A stretch of DNA of 64,000 nucleotides from Zancudomyces culisetae HAW-14-8 (Eukaryota; Fungi; Kickxellomycota): positions 372,001-436,000 of the forward strand of contig JBNJNM010000014.1 of the NCBI GenBank assembly GCA_052426225.1, written 5' to 3'. Under the pieces are notes generated by a model. The model was given only the letters and a program-made list of their open reading frames with translations. It was not told the origin of the DNA and did no database searches. This document shows, one piece after another, positions 29,167-59,846 of this stretch. The stretch's first letter is position 1. Every line of letters begins with the position of its first letter. Position numbers and translations under genes: made by a program.

Positions 29167-30864
29167 TTACATTCGTTCTAGAGGTCTAAGACCCAATAGT
29201 CTCAAGGTGTTTCCAAGAGTGTATCTAGCACAAACATAGAGCAACAATCTAGCAGCGGCAACATCAGGAGCCTGGTTAACAACCCAGAGAGAATCCCAAG
29301 CGGCACTAACAGCGTGGGAAAGCTTGAGAGCGTATTGGACAAAGTTGCAAGGCTCAAGAGTAGACATGGAGGAAGAAACAAGATCGGGGTATTTGGCAAT
29401 GAGATCGATTATGGTAAAGGCTTCAGGCTCAGAGAGAAGAGAGTAGTCGATTTCGGAGGTAAGAGGAACGGAGTCGGCGACTTTTCGTTCAACAGAACAG
29501 AGTCTGGCATGAGCATATTGCAAGTAAGGACCAGTATCACCCTCAAAGGACAGCATACGAGACCAATCAAAAGTATAGTCCTTGATTCTGCGGGCATAGA
29601 GATCTTGGATAACGATGGCAGAGACAGCGACAGATTCAGCAACGTATTGAGGATCGTCGATTTGCTCGTACTTGGACTGGTTCTGTTTCATCAAATCGTG
29701 AACAGCTTCGGTGGTTTGGTCGAGAATGTCACTCAAAAAGACAACAGTGCCCTTTCTGGTACTCATACCCTTGACCAGACCATAGTTGACGTGTTCCATT
29801 TTGCCAGCATATTCGAATCCCATCAGATCAACAATCTTGAACAGCTGTTTGAGGTATTGGTCCTGCTGCGATGACACAATGTAGAATGACTTGTCAAAGT
29901 GGTACGTTTGGTATCGTTCATACGAAGCTCCCAGATCTCTGGTTAGGTACAATGTGGTTCCATCCTTCTTTCGGACTACTGCCACTCCCAACTTGAACTT
30001 CTCCAAGTCAACAATCTTTGCACCATTGGAATCCTTGAGCAGTTCCTTTTCCTCCATTCGCTTTTGCACAACTTCAATGCCTTCCTTGACTGTTGATTCT
30101 CCTGAGTATACATCAAAGTGGATGTTTAGCTTGTCGTATGTCTGCTTGTACTTTTCTATTGACAGAGTACGGAATCGGCTCCACAGTGCCAATGCCTCTT
30201 CGTCTCCCTCTTCCATCTTTCGGAAGTATTCGCGCGCTTGGTCGTGAATTGTTGGGTCTTCTGTTGCGTCATTGTTGATTTTTACATACACATCAAACAA
30301 GTGTTGGATTGGATCGCGTTCCAAATCGCTCTCGTTTCCATATTTGGTATATCCAACTGCCAACAATCCGTACTGCTTGCCCCAATCTCCCAAATAGTTG
30401 ATTGTTGTTGTGTCCCATCCATTGGCCTTGTGCAGATTTGCTACAAAGTTTCCAATAATTGTACTTCTCAAGTGTCCTGCATGGAAAGGTTTGGCAATAT
30501 TTGGACTGCTGAATTCTACCAACACTTTTTTGCCTGCACTGTTTTGGTTTTCTCCATACTTTTCTCGTTTTTGGAATACCTCTCTCAATACCGCCTGCTT
30601 AAGCTTTTCTTTATTGATACTAAAGTTCAAAAATGGTCCAATTGCCTGTGATCCGGTTATCAGCTCACCAGTCTTGACCTTTTCTGCATATTCCTTGGCC
30701 AATTGTACTGGGTTGCCCTTTATTCTCAATCTTGGTATTGCTACTGCCAAATCTCCGTGGTCTGCTACTTTTGGTGCTTCTATTGCCCCCAAAATCACTT
30801 GCTTGTCAACTCCTGATAATTCCGACAATTGAGTCGCTACCGCATCTTTGTATTCTTTAAACAT
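29167..30864 (-). CDS. Arginyl-tRNA synthetase (class I); an ATG-less in-frame N-terminal extension continues to about 31137
   Basis: EFSSPNIAKPFHAGHLRSTIIG (HIGH equivalent), NYLGDWGKQ, DGTTLYLTRDL, GMSTRKG (KMSKS equivalent), GPYLQYAHARLCS, C-terminal LERM. First ATG at 30864. Confidence 0.97.
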   Translation of the reverse strand: MFKEYKDAVATQLSELSGVDKQVILGAIEAPKVADHGDLAVAIPRLRIKGNPVQLAKEYAEKVKTGELITGSQAIGPFLNFSINKEKLKQAVLREVFQKREKYGENQNSAGKKVLVEFSSPNIAKPFHAGHLRSTIIGNFVANLHKANGWDTTTINYLGDWGKQYGLLAVGYTKYGNESDLERDPIQHLFDVYVKINNDATEDPTIHDQAREYFRKMEEGDEEALALWSRFRTLSIEKYKQTYDKLNIHFDVYSGESTVKEGIEVVQKRMEEKELLKDSNGAKIVDLEKFKLGVAVVRKKDGTTLYLTRDLGASYERYQTYHFDKSFYIVSSQQDQYLKQLFKIVDLMGFEYAGKMEHVNYGLVKGMSTRKGTVVFLSDILDQTTEAVHDLMKQNQSKYEQIDDPQYVAESVAVSAIVIQDLYARRIKDYTFDWSRMLSFEGDTGPYLQYAHARLCSVERKVADSVPLTSEIDYSLLSEPEAFTIIDLIAKYPDLVSSSMSTLEPCNFVQYALKLSHAVSAAWDSLWVVNQAPDVAAARLLLYVCARYTLGNTLRLLGLRPLERM

Positions 30865-41347: not shown

Positions 41348-42256
41348 GGCGTATTAAATGTTTATATGTTTGTTTGGATCTTGTAATTGATTTAAATGAG
41401 GATGTTTAGCTAGTGGTTTATTTCTATTTATGATTTCCTTTCTGCAATCTTATCTCATGAAAATATTTTTTTGAGCTAACCTGAAACTATTATAAACGTT
41501 AGTCATATTCTGGGCAAAATCAGAGCTATTTAACAGAAAACCAAGGCTGCTTTAAAAGTAGCTTATCCCAGCGTTTGTCAACTATCAGAATCGCAAATTT
41601 TCATTTTATGATGATTCAAGTAGCAAAATACAGATTTATGATGTTAATGAATAACATAATTTGTTGCACAGGAGATTTTTACATAAATTTTAACGCTCTA
41701 CCAATAGCTTTTGATGTAATGACTAAATTAAAATTAAAGAAATTCAATAATGGTCAATACAGCAAGAATGTGGTGCTGATACTGATTTTGTGCTGAACTA
41801 GCTTTCCTTTAATTCGTGTACTGGAAAAACATTGGCCAAATGAGACTGGAGAACAGAAATTGAATTCCACAAAGAAATGCACTTAATGAGCAATTACAAA
41901 CAAAATTGAGTGCAGCAGTTTCCTTGGTAATTTATAAAGTAAACATCAAAATTAAAGGTGACATTAGAAAATCAAATACCACTTTAATTTTGCTAGCTTA
42001 AAACCAAAACATTGTAATGCCAAATTTAGCAAACTAAACTGTTTCACTAACTGGCTGGGCTTCATGGAAAGCAGTAGTAAACTAGTCACTATCCACCATC
42101 TACAAATATCTATATTTTATTTCTCAGCTCGCAGTACTGAAACCACTAATCATTTATGAAAAATAATACGAGTTTTTAACATAAATAGTAAACCAAAAAA
42201 AGCCCACCAATAAAAAACCGACGATGGCAACCATCTCATCAAAAACAATGCAAAAG

Positions 42257-42329
42257 TGGAGAACCGGGGTATCGATCCCCGTACCTCTCGCATGCTAAGC
42301 GAGCGCTCTACCATTTGAGCTAGTCCCCC
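42257..42329 (-). tRNA. tRNA-Ala (anticodon AGC), copy 1
   Basis: 73-nt cloverleaf GGGGGACTAGCTCAAATGGTAGAGCGCTCGCTT-AGC-ATGCGAGAGGTACGGGGATCGATACCCCGGTTCTCCA with the G3:U70 Ala identity pair, followed by T-runs. Confidence 0.97.
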
Positions 42330-42333
42330 AATG

Positions 42334-42416
42334 TGATTAGAGTGGGATTCGAACCCACGCCTCCGGAGAGACCGCGGCCTTAACGCGGCGCCTTAGACCA
42401 ACTCGGCCATCTAACC
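42334..42416 (-). tRNA. tRNA-Leu (anticodon AAG), copy 1
   Basis: 83-nt type II cloverleaf; anticodon arm CCGCG-TTAAGGC-CGCGG, long variable arm, GTTCGAATC T-loop. Confidence 0.96.
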
Positions 42417-48282: not shown

Positions 48283-48628
48283 GCTGGGTCATTTTTGGAT
48301 TTAGAGTTGACGTTTTCCTTTTTTGTTTGCGTAGTGTATAGTAATTATTTATATTTTCAAGTTGATATTTTTCTACAGATCAAATGTAAATACGATTTAA
48401 ATATGGTATATAACAACACCATTGCGGTAATCTAAGTGTAGCGTAAGCCATTACTATATCAAAATAACAATGTGTGTATTCTTGGAGTTTTTACATATCA
48501 GCCATAGCCAACGCCCTCACACCATACAAAACTCGAAAGTCAAATTTTGCAAACTAGATCAAAGTATAAAAAAGCCTACCAATAAAAAACCGACAATGGC
48601 AACCATCTCATCAAAAACAATGCAAAAG

Positions 48629-48701
48629 TGGAGAACCGGGGTATCGATCCCCGTACCTCTCGCATGCTAAGCGAGCGCTCTACCATTTGAGCTAGTCCCC
48701 C
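48629..48701 (-). tRNA. tRNA-Ala (anticodon AGC), copy 2
   Basis: Identical to 42257-42329. Confidence 0.97.
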
Positions 48702-48705
48702 AATG

Positions 48706-48788
48706 TGATTAGAGTGGGATTCGAACCCACGCCTCCGGAGAGACCGCGGCCTTAACGCGGCGCCTTAGACCAACTCGGCCATCTAACC
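48706..48788 (-). tRNA. tRNA-Leu (anticodon AAG), copy 2
   Basis: Identical to 42334-42416. Confidence 0.96.
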
Positions 48789-49302
48789 ATGCTTTTTGTA
48801 AGCTGAGTTGTAAACACATAAATCTAGATCAAATGTTGAGCATTTTTATGGTTTTTTTATTAAGATTTTTTTTATAATCGATTATGAAAATAGCTTTAAC
48901 CGGATCTACGGCACATATTTAGCCTGCTATTTCAATACTGTTACACATACTATCGCTCATTCTTGATCAAATTTCAAGTTCACACCCCCTTTTTATTATC
49001 TTCAAATTATTGGGTACTACTCGACTTTTTCTTTGAATAAAAGCAAATATATTCAAAGTATTCAGCATCGTTTTCTTTTGGTTAGATGAGTTTATTAAAT
49101 AGATATCACATAGTACTCCAAAAAATAGTTCTGCAAAATAGCAACCAACCAATTCCCGTATTCATCATCAACCCTCCTTTTTGTAGCCAAAACTAGAATT
49201 ACTTGTTTATTATCAATACCATGGTTCTAAAATCCGAAAAGTCGATATTTAAATTAAAGTTACCAGTCTAAAACTATAACGTTTCAGACTAAATAAATAA
49301 GA

Positions 49303-51922: not shown

Positions 51923-54138
51923 TCTGTTTTTGCTTTGACTGTTGTCTTTTCACCTTTGTTAAGTACAGGAAATAATTTTGTGTCACAACTAGTGATAGTA
52001 TCAAGCAACACTATCACCCAGACCTCCTATTGTTACGTTGTTCTATTACCCGACTGATATTGTCTCGTTCAGTCGTTTCTAGGCATGATTTTATTTCTGA
52101 ATTAACGGTTGAAACAAACCTGTTAATATCCCTTTTTATACTTTTATTAGAACATGGTTAGCGACCCTCCAAAACCTGTGATGAGTTTTTCTGACCTTTC
52201 TCCCTCTTTGCTATTCCTCTCAAAATTACCGACTGTAACCCAGTTTTACGTAATACTGCCAGATTTTTGTATTTTTTTTTACAAATGACCTTCACAATAT
52301 TTTTTTTTGCGAAAAAATTTTATTTGCTTGACACAGATTGGCTCAGAATAATGAAATCCACAGGGTTAATAGTAAATCATATTAAATGGTATTGCCTAAT
52401 ATATTTTGAGATATTTAATTTCATTTTTTTTGGGGGGGGGGAGGGGAAAGGGCTGGAGGGGATTGAAGAGGCTGGGTAGTTTCTGGAATATTCATGACTT
52501 TGAATAATAACATCTCCCACTAGTATTGACCTTGCATAGGAGTTGTAATTAGATATTGGTCTTGATTCGAGAAATAACTGTACAGCGCTTATGTACTTTC
52601 TCTAAAATGCCAAAATCTTAGGGCCGGATGGACGCTTTGTGTTGTTAAATACATACCACAAAAGTGCCTCTTCTCAGTAATAATGTTATAGCGGTTTTTT
52701 GTGCACTAAAAAGCGCATATTGTGTGCAAACTTTCCTAGGTGAACCGCCAGAACTTATACCTATCCAGATCTCTATACTCGTGATCAAAAGTTAGATTGA
52801 TCATTTATATAGCTTATTTATTTTAAAGACCCAGTCAAAATTTGAACCTCAACAAAACGCTACTACTCTAAAGCATATGGGGAGGGAGGAGTAGCAAATA
52901 AAAGAGCATGTATCCTATTGTATTGATATTTCAGTTGAATTTTAATTGATTTAAGCGTTTCTGCTTTCCTCCAAGAGTGCAAATACTGTATTAGTACCAT
53001 CTGTCAATATTGTAACTGTTTAAAAGAAGAAAAGTTTAGTACTACTCCAGTGATATTGATGGTCGACAATCTAACAAAAACAATAAGAGTAATTATCTGT
53101 TTGTATGACGAGGTGAGTTGTTGGAATTTGGAATCACTAAAACTATGCTCATCACATCCCGTGATTTAACGATTTTTACGCTAGGTTAAATAATCGATAA
53201 AGCAGAAATAGAGTCCATCAAATCGCGAAGGAAATCATCTATTCTCTTTAGTGTATTTAGGCTCTTGATATAGTATGGTTATGTGTATTGATCTCTTATC
53301 AGCCTCGTTTTTCCTTGTTATATAAAAATAGAAGATAGCTATACAACTGCCGAGTAGTAAATAGCACAGCTGGGTTTTATTCTTTTGAACTAGTTCCGAA
53401 CATTTTGATTCATTGATAAACAAGACATTCATTTCATATTTTTGCATATTTTTCTGCAAAATGAATATATATTTCGACTTTAGTCTAGTTTATTGTTAAA
53501 ATGCAAGAAAGAAAAAAAAAACTTAATAACTTTGATTAGCTCGGATGTTTTTTGACACAGCAATCTCAAAGCTATAATGTAATAACACAAGAGCATAACA
53601 AAACTTCTGAATCATCCAAATAAACTCTTATTGTATTTTACTCTGGTACCTGTATTTTATCCATACAAGATTATATCATATTATCCTAATAGCCATATAT
53701 TGCCGGGTTACGGCTACACTTTCTTAGAAGCATTCAGAAATTTACATCATGATTTCTTGATTTGAATCAAATAACAATCAGTTTTATTGTAAGATACTGA
53801 TAAACATGCTTTGACAACTAATCTTCAATACCTTGACAGGTAATAGACCGATACTTTCAATTGTACTTCAGTTTTAAAACTACTGAATAAACTGTTACTT
53901 ATATTGTCTTTTATACATTAATTCTAAGAGCTATATTCGGCAAAGTGCAGCATAAGTTCTCTCAAAAATGCATTTTCACAATAAAAATGTTATATATAAA
54001 TACCAAGTTTGGTTTACCGATGCTTTCTCCATCTAAACTTCCTTTTATATTGCTATATACGCCCGGTTAGCTAAATTGGAATTTTTGTAAGAAGATATCA
54101 GCATTTGAAACCAAGCAACTACACCACAAAAAAAAAGG

Positions 54139-54531
54139 ATGCGCCTAATGAACCTTTCACTACTCAGCCTAACATCTCAGTTGTTGGTCACGGCTCATTG
54201 TGATAGACACACTCGCTCTCGCTTTAATCATGACGAATGGGAAAACCTTGGCAAAATATGCAATCCAAAGGTGAATCGCAACTGGAGTTGGGATGTCGCC
54301 CCAGATTATCTCTTTGTAAACTCGTTGCCTTGTAAGCCAAAATCGTTTGATGGTCAGAGGTTTGAGTACATGTATGTCTGTTTTAGAAGGTTTAGAAGAA
54401 AATGGCACAAGGATGAGAAATTCCGCGCGCATTGGGATAACTCCAAACACTTCCGTAGAAGACTGTTCAATGAAAGTCTTCAGCATTACTCATTTTACTT
54501 TTACAATCAAAATGATGTTGACCATCACTAG
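54139..54531 (+). CDS. Small secreted protein with an aromatic 10-residue repeat domain (paralog of 58908..59441)
   Basis: Signal-peptide-like N-terminus, A-rich ATG context, TATA-like TATATATAAATA near 53991. Ungapped similarity to the 58908 ORF (18/61 identities). Confidence 0.75.
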   Translation: MRLMNLSLLSLTSQLLVTAHCDRHTRSRFNHDEWENLGKICNPKVNRNWSWDVAPDYLFVNSLPCKPKSFDGQRFEYMYVCFRRFRRKWHKDEKFRAHWDNSKHFRRRLFNESLQHYSFYFYNQNDVDHH

Positions 54532-55049
54532 GCTCAGTTTTGTATCCGCTTTGGCTTATAAAGCGAAAATTACTGTAGTGAAGTTTTAGTGTTTAATCAG
54601 AGAGAAAGATAACGTGAAACGACAATTTACTTGTTTTATAAAATAAACATGTTCATGTCATGACCTAGTAACTTTTTTTTGAAGTTTTTAGGCAAGTTGA
54701 TCCCAGTCATTTTCATATAACCAAAGTAAATAATAAATATATGAATCATTATATATCAGTTTTTAAGGTGTTTTATATATAGATGGGCTCCAGTTTCTGT
54801 TAGCCTTCAGTATATCTGCTTTCATTTGGAAATTTGCATCATATTTTCTCGTTTTTTAAATCCTAGGCAAAAGTTTCAAAGATATAAATTATTTAAACTG
54901 AACCAACAAATTTTACTTAAATTAAAGCGGAATGATCAGTTGATTGCCTAAAATGGCTGAAAATATCAATTTACTCTTTGCACGTCATAGTATTATCAAG
55001 AATATATTATAATTCAATATTTGCATGTTGGTAAACTAACACACAAAAT

Positions 55050-57161
55050 ATGTTACTAAATCCGTGGCTGCGACAAAGGTCGGTCTATATAAACCCCATA
55101 CTAGGTCAACCTTTAAGGCGTATTTCAGATTTTACAAACTCGCGTTTTTCTAATCTCTTACCAGAAACATGGGTCATTTCGACAAAAAATACGGAATCAA
55201 TGCTGGCTGGCAAAAGTCTTGCCGAAAAAATAGGCCTCCCTACCGTAAATAAGATCATATCCCCTTCAAATTGTAAGAAAGTAGATACAAGAATATTTTT
55301 TTAAAGAGAAGGGGTAGTATATAAAAATTCTCCCCTCCCCATTCTTCGCAGTGGCTAATTCTTTTTGAATTGGAATTTCTTATAGTGAATAGATATCTTC
55401 CCTTTGCTCTTGGAAATTTGACTTCCAAAATATTTAACTCGACTGGGATAGGTGAGTAAACATTTTCCGCATAGCATTAATACTACTACGCACCAATATT
55501 GTTCTAATACCAATCACAAATTTCAAATTAGATTCAAAAGTTTCCAATTTTCCACGCTTTATCGTTGCTTCTGAAAACTTGGTAATCCCAGCCTGTCTTT
55601 TACTTAAAAAAATAAGCAAAAACCAATCCTTTTTGGGTAAGCCCGGTATATTTACTGTTCCCTTTTATGTGAACTGAGCTAATTTTGCAGTTTTTGCCTA
55701 CATTCAAACACACCAACCACCTTTGATGTAAATATATAGTTTTCAATGGAAAGCCAGAATGCTCGTTGAATAAATTCGACGCTGTGAGTTTAAGCTGGAT
55801 AGAAAAAATGGAATTAAGTAAGAATTGCACCGAACAGGCTTTTATGCGTTTGTCTTTCTATATCTTAATATCCTTAATTTATTTTATAGGAAAACTCGGT
55901 CCGTTTATGGCGGCAAGAAAAAACGTCTTTTCATCAGAGGTGAAGCTTTATTTATACTCTTTCATCGAGTGCTTGCTAACATTATATATATTTCGAATCT
56001 AACCGTACCAATAGCTGCCTATCTCTGCCTATTCCCCCGATGTCAAAGGTAAATCAAGAGAGGCTAGCAATAGTACTGGTATTCCAACTTCCCAGGCCGG
56101 AAAACATATGGCTGTATTCATCGACTCGTGCTGGCACCCAAGCGTTTATAAAATGAGTGTTGACGATGCAGAAAAGCTTGGAAAGGATCTAGAGGTAGGC
56201 GCTATACATCTAAAATAATATTACGTAACAATTTTTTTTAAGCGTCCATAGTAGAAGCATTTTGTTACACTGTTAAATGCTTTATCACATATTGATTTAG
56301 AAACTGGCAGGAGATTATGGTTTTAGTTTATCAGTCAGGTTTTCCAAGAACACGCCTTTACATGTATGATTTCCACACTATTTCTCAGATTTTCAATATA
56401 TGCCATCATGTGTACCATTTTTTATTGATAAAAGCTAGCAACTATTCATTTAATCAACTATTATATCCCGTGAAATAGCTAAAGAAAGTGGTAATGGGTT
56501 CCCTAACCAGGTAATTTGTTATTATATTTAAAGTAAATTAACACTTTTAACCACTAACTATTCGGTTCTTCATAGAATCAAAGCACAAAACAAGGGTTGC
56601 TCTATCGATTATTGGGACGAGGAACACCCAAATGAAGTGACTGATCCTTATGAGACATACCTATTTCGTGCCGATCACGTTCTTATAACCGCTGATGCTT
56701 TGAATACTCTATCTAACTCTCTATATCTAGGGTAAGTATTTCATTTTATTGAATATTTTTTTTGGGGGGAGGGGGGGGGAGGGTGAAGTTGGAGTTGGAG
56801 TTGGAGCTGGAGTTGGATTTTACAGATTAACCGTCTTTAACCTCCACACCAATGTTGGTATTGTATAATTCCGAAACGTATTAAAATAACCATTAGGAAA
56901 CCCACGTATATAATTAACCAAGAGTCTACATCCAAACTACTAAGAACATTATACGCCAATCTCAACGAAAAAAACTTTGTAAGAAGGTTTTATCTGGGTG
57001 GAAGTTTTGATTACATGCTGGACGGAAGTTTTGAGCTTAAAGCCGATATTTTGTCAACCACAAGCGAAGACAAGCCTTTTTCGTACTACTTAGATGCTAA
57101 TACTAATAGTGCACTTAAATTTTCCCAGTTTATTGCAAAGAAGTACAAGTCTTTTGCATAA
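55050..57161 (+). CDS. ELM1-like (Mito_fiss_Elm1 family) protein, 10 exons, about 405 aa
   Basis: Exons 55050-55272, 55386-55451, 55532-55636, 55740-55817, 55890-55939, 56015-56194, 56301-56363, 56479-56510, 56576-56731, 56897-57161 are all GT-AG and phase-compatible (1218 nt). Motifs WVIST...SLAEKIGLP, PRFIVAS...ACLLLKKIS, P...KFDAV, FSKNTP and WDEEHP...DPYETYLFRADHVLITAD...LGKPTYI parallel ELM1 motifs (SRRTP; NPY...ADA.VVTADS.SM.SEA..TGKPVYV). Confidence 0.8.
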
Positions 57162-58907
57162 ATCCCTTTATTTGAAAATTACATAGGATATTTCTATTAC
57201 TTTTGTTTTTTGGCAATTGTACGCCTAAAATACATGTACATAAACTACAAATAATGGGTACTCGGTTCTATTTTAATTTTGTTATCAGCCCAAGGCGAAT
57301 AAAAATACTATTAATAAGTCGATTCCGACGTAGCAACCCCGGTCATGTACTATTGTACAGGCTTTTTTATACAAGCACTTTTGTGCAGCCACATTAAACA
57401 TGTATGTGAATTTCTCTGTTGCTTGTTCTTTTTGTCTTTTTATAAAAACATGAACCCCCTATTCATTGTATCCAAATATATCATAGTAATTACGGCAACA
57501 CAATAAGTAATTCACCTTGTCAACTCTTTTTGGGGCGAGATATACAGAATACAGCATTACCCAAAACTTTATCTGATTATACAAAGGAAAAATGGTACAA
57601 AGTTGAATATATCGGCGCTGGCTGGTTCTTGCTACTGGTTTGCTTTGTGGGTTAATGATTGTTTTTTTAGTAGATACAGCATGTAGAGTGAGTGTAGTAT
57701 TCAGATGAGTTGATGGTGAATAATGGTCTTGGGAAAAAAAAACACCCCGCAATCTGGCTGTGGGGGGGTGTTATTGTACACATCTTTTTCTTTTTTCTTT
57801 TTTCTTTTTGCCTTTTGTTATGTTTTGACCAATAAAAGTCGCGTATTTGAATAATATGTAAAATAAATAAAGTACCAAAAATTGTTGAAAACTACCAGAA
57901 ATTATTGGTATTTCAGCGATTAACGAAAAAATCGGCGTATTATTTCTGGGGTATAATGAGATTTGTAAGCCGATCTCAATTATTAAACAAATACAATCAC
58001 AATTGTTATTACCATAATTAAGACACAAAATGTCCAAACACCTAATAACAATGCTAATATATTTGAGTGTTAAAGAGCTTGAAACTTGAGCAAAAGCGTA
58101 AACTTGCAACAGGACGCGCCCCCTTTTCCCCGTATAGATAGGTATTCGCAGCTGTACTATAAAACAAATAATGGCATTTTAAACAATATTGATATACACC
58201 CAAAATTATGTAGTGGTCATATAGCTATGAACCCCAATTATGCCATCAAAAAAGATCAACGTAATTACATATTGCCTATTGTTTGCAGAAGCCAAATTAA
58301 AATAATTTTCTTATACTCGGCCAAATTCGTTTTCAAAAAGGATGGGAAAAAAAGTATAATAAAACCATCATGGTAATGCATTCTATTATAGTAGATAACG
58401 CAAAATGGGATAATGTGCGCAAACGCTTGTTTTATTATTGATGGTTAAGAAGGTTAGGCAAAATATTGTTATAAATTTACGACTATAAGGAGTTCAAATT
58501 GAATTTTAAGGCATTTTGGTTGGGATAAAGGGAGGTGAGGTTGTTCCACATTGTTTGACTATTATTGTTTGATCTGATTGTCATTGAATTTTAACAAAGC
58601 TACTGAAGGCCGTGTAATTAAAATACTAGTAGATTTGTATAGAGGTTTGCACATTTTATCTTACGAAGCAACTCATTAACGGTGCAAATTACAATTAAAG
58701 TTCATATAGCTGTAGAGACCTTTAATAATATAAAAAAATATGGCAGGTGAAGGCAAAACACAAAAAGATATAAATAGACAAGTTTTATGACTTGAATAAC
58801 TAAAAATTAAGCATCAACATCTTAATAACAACATACATACACAAGCTTTTATCAAGTGTAAACTTTTGCAACATCTTCAATACGCAATTAAAATCAAATC
58901 ATTCAAA

Positions 58908-59441
58908 ATGAAAGTCTCAACACTATCACTTTTAACTCTCTTGAGCGTTGCATATGGCCAGGAGGAACGCAATGGGGAGAATGGTGAGGAAGGCGCTGTA
59001 ATGAATAAGAGAGCATGGGGAGGTAGCAGCAACAACAACAACAACAACAACTGGAGCCATAACAGACCAGGTAGTAGCAATAACAACAACAACAACAACA
59101 ACTGGAGCCATAACAGACCAGGTAATAACCATAACAACAACAACTGGAACAACAGACCAAATGGAGGTGGTTCAAGTTGGAATTGGGGATCTAGAAAAAT
59201 CAGAAACAAGTTCTACAGATATGGAAGATACTGGCAAATGAGCTCAAGACCTGATAACTACTTCATTTCCAGATTGAGATACAGACCATCAAATTACTAT
59301 GGCCAATACTTCCAGTACCTCTACACATATAACTCAAGCTTTAGAAAGAACTGGGACTACAGTCAATACTTCCGTAACCAATGGAATAGCAACCAAAACT
59401 TCTGTTATAACTGGATTGTAACTATTAACTTTAGCATGTAG
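58908..59441 (+). CDS. Secreted Asn-rich repeat protein with a Kex2-like site and a C-terminal aromatic 10-residue repeat domain
   Basis: Signal peptide MKVSTLSLLTLLSVAYG, acidic pro-segment, KR site, three G(S/N)..Nn W..NRP repeats, then the FRxxW domain. TATAAATA at 58769-58776. Confidence 0.85.
   Translation: MKVSTLSLLTLLSVAYGQEERNGENGEEGAVMNKRAWGGSSNNNNNNNWSHNRPGSSNNNNNNNNWSHNRPGNNHNNNNWNNRPNGGGSSWNWGSRKIRNKFYRYGRYWQMSSRPDNYFISRLRYRPSNYYGQYFQYLYTYNSSFRKNWDYSQYFRNQWNSNQNFCYNWIVTINFSM
59022..59159 (+). repeat. Intragenic tandem repeat with (AAC)n tracts, 3 units
   Basis: GGTAGYAGC(AAY)nTGGAGCCATAACAGACCA x2 plus a diverged third unit. Confidence 0.85.
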
Positions 59442-59846
59442 TTTTCTGCATTTTATGATTAGTATTTCTTTTTTGTCATGCAAAAAAAAGTTAAAAAAAA
59501 TAAAGTTTTGGATACCAAGGTGATCGGCCCATGCCTATGAATTATGAAAAATTTAAAAAGTTATAGTTGGATAAGAGCGAATGTTTAAGCACCTGAAGCA
59601 TTCTTGGTATATCAATTCATCCCTGTTACTGTCATATCCATCTAATTTCGTTAGTGGTTTAACTTTCCAAACTTAATTTTCACCACCACTGATTTTTGTT
59701 TAATTCAAAAAAAAATTATGCAATAAAATGACCACATATTTACAGTACTCGTTTTTTTTACCTTTTAAAAACTTGCGAAACAACGAGAAAATATATATAT
59801 ATAGGTAAATATATATATAGGGCCAAGTGAGCAGGGCATTCTAAAA

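Follow-up and report, generated by a model that had tools for sequence, protein, structure and literature searches.

Two paralogous genes of Zancudomyces culisetae and an unnamed family of predicted secreted proteins traced to Harpellales

Two open reading frames (ORFs) of Zancudomyces culisetae HAW-14-8, designated P0001 and P0002, encode members of an unnamed protein family that possesses a conserved domain of its own. They lie in a 64,000-nucleotide stretch of contig JBNJNM010000014.1 (positions 372,001 to 436,000), here termed the window, and their component parts are listed in Table 1. The initial annotation, made from the letters of the window alone, proposed that both ORFs belong to an unrecognised family of small secreted proteins built on a 10-residue F-R-x-x-W repeat, and described a gapless alignment of 61 residues between them. 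This alignment was reproduced with exactly 18 identities and the residue pattern that had been given. Its Smith-Waterman score of 118 exceeds the maximum of 70 among 5,000 shuffles of the whole proteins and of 59 among 5,000 shuffles of the domains, and a BLASTP comparison of the two proteins yields an E value of 2e-10. The recurrence of Phe at positions 27, 37, 47 and 57 and of aromatic residues at 31, 41 and 51 was likewise recovered; at position 61 the series continues with Trp in P0002 but ends with Leu in P0001. The strong contrast in charge that had been drawn between the two proteins proved smaller than described, since both domains are cationic (net charges of +8 and +7). On their sequences, P0001 and P0002 are old paralogues. 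That the two genes arose by a recent tandem duplication was considered and is unsupported, given that their domains are 28% identical, that 90 of 183 bases agree and that a separate gene lies between them.

The two ORFs differ in how closely they conform to the family. P0001 differs by one residue from OMH80659.1 (AX774_g5894) of Z. culisetae, and its N-terminus resembles those of the Z. culisetae paralogues P0143 and P0172. It has neither a Lys-Arg site nor a tail, and the Trp of its third F-R-x-x-W unit is missing. P0002 is likely a gene missed by annotation, because it was not found in a collection of 15 billion proteins and the profile search gave no close match to it; a word-based search with its residues 97-177 gave no candidate. 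Signal peptides had been assigned to both ORFs. That of P0002 is clear (best eight-residue hydropathy of 2.46), whereas that of P0001 is weak or borderline (1.51) and fails the heuristic described below. TATA boxes had also been placed upstream of both, and such words do occur, at -148, -146 and -144 relative to P0001 and at -179 and -139 relative to P0002; they carry little weight, because similar words lie within 250 bases of 6 of 13 other ORF starts in the window.

The extent of the family was explored with a two-row profile, searched against 1.84 billion representative proteins at E values up to 0.001. The search returned 36 matches, 33 of which are true members; the other three (P0156, P0161 and P0165) were dropped as spurious repeats that score at most 3 bits with a 23-row profile. 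Cluster look-ups and a word-based search with a deeper profile added eight members, for a total of 41 database relatives, and the family thus extends far beyond two copies. Organism names are attached to 30 of these relatives, and all 30 are Harpellales, representing seven species (Z. culisetae, Furculomyces boomerangus, Smittium angustum, S. culicis, S. simulii, S. megazygosporum and S. mucronatum); every one is labelled “hypothetical” at NCBI. No Kickxellales, Dimargaritales or Mucorales occur among the named relatives, though their proteins are in the collection, and distant relatives may escape a two-row profile. Pattern scans derived from the family alignment, which require an 8-9-residue motif and are insensitive, found no relatives in 276 candidates from metagenomes, 23 from prokaryote genomes and 67 from viral contigs. 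As judged by these searches, the family has been traced so far to Harpellales alone.

Within this order the family has duplicated repeatedly and recently, as shown by adjacent gene tags on one contig (AX774_g6593/g6594 and AYI70_g700/g701) and by supported single-species clades in a tree of 38 rows, the backbone of which is unresolved. Partial domains (P0160, P0162, P0163 and P0164) were kept out of the tree, and P0131, a near-duplicate of P0001, was kept out of the counts. Z. culisetae contains at least four members. P0002 shares 46-49% identity with the six relatives closest to it, while P0001 occupies a long branch (1.64 changes per column) and is closest to P0132, at 44%. In P0136 (S. megazygosporum BB560_002733), the domain follows a GPCR-like membrane protein, together with a remnant propeptide and Lys-Arg site; annotation has likely fused two adjacent genes here, and this accounts for the UniRef name of the protein.

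No description of the family was found in the openly accessible literature on Harpellales, holdfasts or secreted families. The motif “FRxxW” led to one unrelated paper and five accession numbers to none, and six family gene tags gave one unrelated match in the available supplements of PMC5954228. Passages of PMC5954228, PMC12611240, PMC13373617, PMC9391592 and PMC9866270 likewise do not describe it.

The domain, about 70 residues long, aromatic and rich in Arg, is defined by a small set of invariant columns. Over 42 proteins, one Pro and two Phe columns are fully conserved (42 of 42 each), as are two Trp columns (41 of 41 and 40 of 40) and an Arg column (40 of 40), and a second Arg is present in 38 of 40. 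An enzyme is unlikely, because no column of a catalytic-type residue (His, Cys, Asp, Glu, Ser or Lys) rises above 63%. The highest Cys column reaches 0.29, so that there is no conserved Cys pattern of the kind seen in Cys-rich effectors, defensins or hydrophobins. The 10-residue period is significant: the family profile has a self-similarity of 0.71 at lag 10, and 2,000 shuffles of its columns gave no value above 0.49 at any lag. It is confined to the C-terminal 40 residues of the domain and absent from the N-terminal half. Each of the 42 proteins carries a single domain, and F-R/K-x-x-W units number three in 22 proteins, two in 17, one in 1 and none in 2.

Structure prediction with AlphaFold2, based on a 36-row alignment, gave the P0002 domain a predicted local distance difference test (pLDDT) score of 90.6 and a predicted template modelling (pTM) score of 0.79, with the five models at 89-91. 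In the predicted fold, a hairpin and a short helix lead through a Pro linker to four helices, each of 8-9 residues and set 10 residues apart, and the Phe and Trp residues of these four would form the core. The model of P0001 contains the same helical core (pLDDT 94-98), with helices at residues 57-62, 74-81, 83-91, 93-101 and 103-127, and a helix replaces the N-terminal hairpin. A homodimer prediction, run without an alignment and with an uncertain partner fold, scored 0.00 and is evidence neither way. The aromatic-ladder repeat scaffold envisaged in the initial annotation is not supported by these results. An open-ended solenoid or β-ladder is recognised by a variable number of tandem units, whereas no family member has more than three. 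Because the units are not expandable and the predicted structure is compact and helical, the 10-residue repeat is best taken as a symmetry within one helical domain that is small and closed.

Comparisons with known families agreed with the earlier impression that no named domain is present, as there is no Pfam, NCBIfam or PHROG match over the domain. Pfam returned no family for either window protein at E values up to 1, and none of 23 domain rows matched NCBIfam or PHROGs. When 36 mostly full-length members were scanned against Pfam, matches were obtained to GRP (three members, best E 2e-4) and New_glue (two members, best E 2e-4), along with weaker ones; these were not located along the proteins, and they are absent from the domain-only first row. 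A designed β-propeller recovered by a PDB sequence search (E 5e-5) was rejected as the sum of eight repeats at less than 2 bits each. Foldseek found no match in the PDB at E values up to 0.001 and none in a viral library. VIA-align against 48,161 chains gave a best Z of 3.5 for the P0002 domain (root-mean-square deviation (rmsd) 2.8, 55 residues aligned) and of 3.5 for P0001 (rmsd 4.2, 80 aligned). All three ESM Atlas searches lacked a usable feature match, and the structure rows that they returned (RcnB, SLH and others), with template modelling (TM) scores of at most 0.37, lay below the bar. Fold searches without a clear match show neither a new fold nor a difference from known folds.

The precursors share a characteristic order of parts, consisting in a typical member of a signal peptide, an acidic propeptide, a Lys-Arg site, a tail rich in Gly, Asn, Arg, Ser, Tyr and His, and the cationic aromatic domain. 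Signal peptides were called with a hydropathy heuristic that scores the best eight-residue stretch. The heuristic was passed by 32 of 41 Met-starting members and by 1 of 120 synthetase control proteins. Together with the 41 relatives and the absence of Pfam, NCBIfam and PHROG matches, this result upholds the proposal of an unrecognised family of signal-peptide-bearing proteins, secretion itself being predicted. Under a broad definition of small secreted proteins (a signal peptide and fewer than 300 amino acids), P0002 qualifies by the heuristic and P0001 is borderline.

A Lys-Arg pair precedes the domain in 26 of the 36 members with a signal-like start, a count that excludes six members lacking such a start; shuffles gave a mean of 9.6 and a maximum of 17. 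In 19 of these 26 proteins the segment before the pair carries a net negative charge, and in 23 the remainder beyond the pair is net positive; the pair is a predicted site of Kex2 cleavage. The isoelectric point (pI) of the mature product is at least 9 in 36 of 42 members. Flanking sequences of members shorter than 270 amino acids consist of 22.5% Gly, 12.3% Asn, 11.5% Arg, 9.1% Ser, 7.5% Tyr and 5.4% His, 68% together. In P0148, P0150, P0152, P0155, P0159, P0166 and P0174, the domain is found at the end of low-complexity stalks of 300-970 amino acids. In P0148 and P0150, both long precursors from S. mucronatum, the domain is preceded by duplicated acidic segments with Lys-Arg sites at their boundaries, and these proteins resemble KEX2-processed repeat proteins (KEPs) joined to the family domain. 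None of the 42 members has a tail of the glycosylphosphatidylinositol (GPI) type, sought heuristically as a 12-residue C-terminal stretch of hydropathy above 1.5, which separates the family from GPI-anchored adhesins such as Flo11, Als and Mad1.

Several known systems resemble the family in part. The R&R consensus domain of the CPR cuticular proteins of insects is modelled as a β-sheet. These proteins are similar to the family in layout only, with a signal peptide, one aromatic domain of about 65-70 amino acids, variable Gly/His-rich flanks and a multigene organization that includes tandem copies (PMC2259329). In contrast, none of the 36 scanned members matches pfam00379 (the R&R consensus), the motif is different and the family domain is predicted to be mostly helical, so that CPR proteins offer an analogy, not membership. 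Orthogroups of zygomycete small secreted proteins without a Pfam match (PMC9391592) share several features with the family, most members of which are under 300 amino acids in length, carry signal peptides and come from related taxa of one ecology. They constitute a broad class, from which the present family is set apart by its defined domain, by the 10-residue period of the helices and by the propeptide in its layout; the passages of that paper contain no occurrence of Harpellales or Smittium. The family is thus an unnamed one with its own domain, within the known class of lineage-specific fungal small secreted proteins.

Other resemblances concern composition or processing. Mussel foot proteins Mfp-3 and Mfp-5 are small and secreted, and they combine aromatic and basic residues suited to cation-π cohesion and wet adhesion (PMC12721214; PMC7518861). 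This likeness is one of composition only, as the mussel proteins are disordered and carry Dopa, while the family domain is conserved and confidently predicted to fold, with low complexity limited to the tails. KEPs have a signal peptide and Lys-Arg sites (PMC9769878), and several such sites occur in P0148, P0150 and P0152. Unlike KEPs, which contain several repeated cores flanked by Kex2 sites, P0001 has no Lys-Arg site, P0002 has one and most members have one before the domain; moreover, the 17-residue repeats of P0002 are not separated by Lys-Arg, and its product would keep a predicted folded domain. The fasciclin FISCoG.g2 is a published candidate adhesin of the same fungi, predicted to be extracellular and proposed to function in gut attachment (PMC5954228). 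It differs in its length of 562 amino acids, its two FAS1 domains and its occurrence across insect pathogens, and no FAS1 match was found among the 36 family members scanned.

The genes around P0001 and P0002 are of a housekeeping nature and include an SPX-EXS gene, a TAF8-like gene and a septin gene; no sign of a biosynthetic cluster was seen around the two ORFs in the window. The gene between them is spliced (approximately 55050-57161, + strand) and is absent from the ATG-ORF listing; one of its exons gives a weak match to Mito_fiss_Elm1 (E 0.0085) that falls short of the curated cut-off. An arginyl-tRNA synthetase gene (29167-30864), 23 kb from the family genes, is closest to those of Furculomyces and Smittium (64-67%), which, together with the near-identity of P0001 to OMH80659.1, places the window in a Harpellales fungus of insect guts. 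In F. boomerangus, the synthetase (BB559_005156) and P0132 (BB559_005157) bear consecutive tags, both being on 4 contigs, the longest of 74,600 bases. These gene tags suggest that linkage of the synthetase to a family member is conserved across genera.

No third full copy of the domain was found within the window. A stretch of 21 residues between stops at approximately 48918-48980 (+ strand), with neither a start codon nor a full domain, scores 13.5 bits with the family profile; none of 30 shuffled windows reached 13.7 bits, the best scoring 13.0, and the stretch may be a chance match or a relic of the family domain. The two-gene block is flanked by an imperfect, AT-rich inverted match of 35 bases (53748-53782 and 59688-59720; 30.1 bits). 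Its score was equalled by 4 of 150 random window pairs, and it is likely due to chance. On the - strand, a pair of tRNA genes, tRNA-Leu(AAG) and tRNA-Ala(AGC), occurs in two copies (42256-42416 and 48628-48788) with 3 bases between the tRNAs; it may represent a dicistronic tRNA unit whose two copies lie 6.4 kb from each other.

Table 1. Positions, within the window, of P0001, P0002 and their component and upstream features.
Feature	Position	Strand	Remarks
ORF P0001, 130 amino acids, atypical family member	54139..54531	+	Intact, intron-free as read
Signal-peptide-like N-terminus of P0001, residues 1-19	54139..54195	+	Cleavage site placed by eye
Conserved domain of P0001, residues 45-113	54271..54477	+	88.9 bits, 23-row profile
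ORF P0002, 177 amino acids, layout typical of the family	58908..59441	+	Intact, intron-free as read
Predicted signal peptide of P0002, residues 1-17	58908..58958	+	Hydropathy 2.46, N-terminal Lys; cleavage site by eye
Acidic propeptide of P0002, residues 18-35, ending in Lys-Arg (predicted Kex2 site)	58959..59012	+	Net charge -3
Asn/Gly/Ser/Trp-rich low-complexity tail of P0002	59013..59210	+	
51-base direct repeat, 3 copies, inside the P0002 tail	59023-59172		
Conserved domain of P0002, residues 102-174	59211..59429	+	91.1 bits; AlphaFold2 pLDDT 90.6, pTM 0.79
Periodic part of the P0002 domain: four predicted 8-9-residue helices with F-Q-Y-L-Y and F-R-x-x-W units	59307..59417	+	
TATA-like word 5' of P0001	53991..54002	+	Weak evidence
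Two TATA-like words 5' of P0002	58729..58776	+	Weak evidence

The reading of the family that we tentatively favour, while holding it a little short of probable, is that its members are secreted and contribute to the matrix of the spore wall or of the holdfast glue. Harpellales inhabit the guts of mosquito, blackfly and midge larvae, where their spores, once extruded, release a holdfast substance and become attached within 90 s; potassium together with a change of pH can trigger this process (PMC13062954). The usual fungal adhesins are few or absent in these fungi, which have been expected to attach by a new strategy (PMC5954228). In mussel proteins, aromatic-basic pairs drive wet adhesion (PMC12721214), and in one such protein Tyr paired with basic residues suffices for it even without Dopa (PMC7518861); minimal Trp/Arg peptides self-coacervate (PMC11323023). 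In the family, the acidic propeptide may keep the cationic protein soluble until release, after which the domain would use its invariant Arg and Trp to hold on to the fungal wall or the gut lining, by way of a polysaccharide or polyanion there. A role as an anchoring module is suggested by the position of the domain at the end of long stalks in several members. The Gly/Asn/Arg/Tyr/His tails could then provide cohesion through cation-π contacts, as in mussel foot proteins, and a shift in pH during gut passage might set the material. A more specific version is doubtful, namely that the family is itself the long-sought glue of the trichomycete holdfast, stored behind the acidic propeptide in the spore, released on a cue of potassium and pH, set within seconds by Arg-Trp/Tyr cation-π cohesion and anchored to the chitinous gut lining by a new mini-helical fold.

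Several points weigh against a matrix function. A signal peptide, an acidic propeptide, a Lys-Arg site and a cationic Arg/Trp-rich product also make up the layout of many antimicrobial precursors. The mature product is neutral or acidic in 6 of 42 members, the flank composition stands without a control set of other Harpellales secreted proteins, and P0001 has no tail, Lys-Arg site or clear signal peptide. Restriction to Harpellales, which rests on the 30 of 41 relatives that are named and on an exhaustive search with a two-row profile, would suit any gut-adapted function.

The family might instead consist of secreted cationic proteins with antibacterial activity that shape the microbiota of the gut, the acidic propeptide masking an Arg/Trp-rich product that would bind and disrupt bacterial envelopes. 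We consider this unlikely, although signal, acidic propeptide, Lys-Arg and cationic product occur together in 18 of 26 members, the high pI of most products would suit it, its species-specific duplications resemble those of arms-race families, and adult male mosquitoes had a less diverse bacterial community after exposure to Z. culisetae as larvae (PMC7393158). The stalked members and the six neutral or acidic products fit this explanation poorly, conserved Cys is lacking, and the invariant Phe, Trp and Pro point to a fixed fold, not to a free amphipathic helix.

It is distinctly unlikely that the members are host-directed small secreted effectors, in which the domain would bind a host ligand (an immune lectin, mucin or receptor) or mask wall chitin and the paralogues would be tuned to hosts. 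Fungal effectors are usually drawn from small secreted proteins that have expanded within a single lineage and are restricted to it (PMC9391592), and the variable surface around an invariant core and long branches such as that of P0001 are in keeping with such a role. Nevertheless, the large low-complexity Gly/Asn/Arg tails and stalks would be more typical of matrix proteins, the Arg positions are invariant over seven species instead of diversified, and Harpellales are commensals of the gut lumen (PMC9866270).

A narrower alternative accepts the family and treats P0001 as a paralogue that is decaying or has taken on another role, and whose secretion is doubtful. Its weak signal peptide, missing Lys-Arg site, lost Trp, long branch and unpredicted hairpin agree with this idea, which is nonetheless quite improbable given an open frame with a single difference between the window and OMH80659.1, retention of the core Pro, Phe, Trp and Arg, and a core predicted with high pLDDT. 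The stacking of an open-ended 10-residue aromatic ladder into fibrils, to which the lag-10 self-similarity and a P0002 tail whose Asn content could promote aggregation might point, is very improbable in view of the few units, the single domain per protein, the aperiodic N-terminal half and the compact, helical models of both P0001 and P0002.

Whatever its role, the family provides an unnamed domain with a confidently predicted structure and a 10-residue helical period. It also supplies a short list of candidates for Harpellales attachment, and with at least four genes in Z. culisetae, which is culturable, the question is testable. If its members are antibacterial, they would help to explain the effect of the fungus on the mosquito microbiota. 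If they are adhesive, they would offer a new template for wet glues, and should the holdfast reading be true, the family would represent a fungal wet adhesive that is convergent with mussel glue and built on its own domain.

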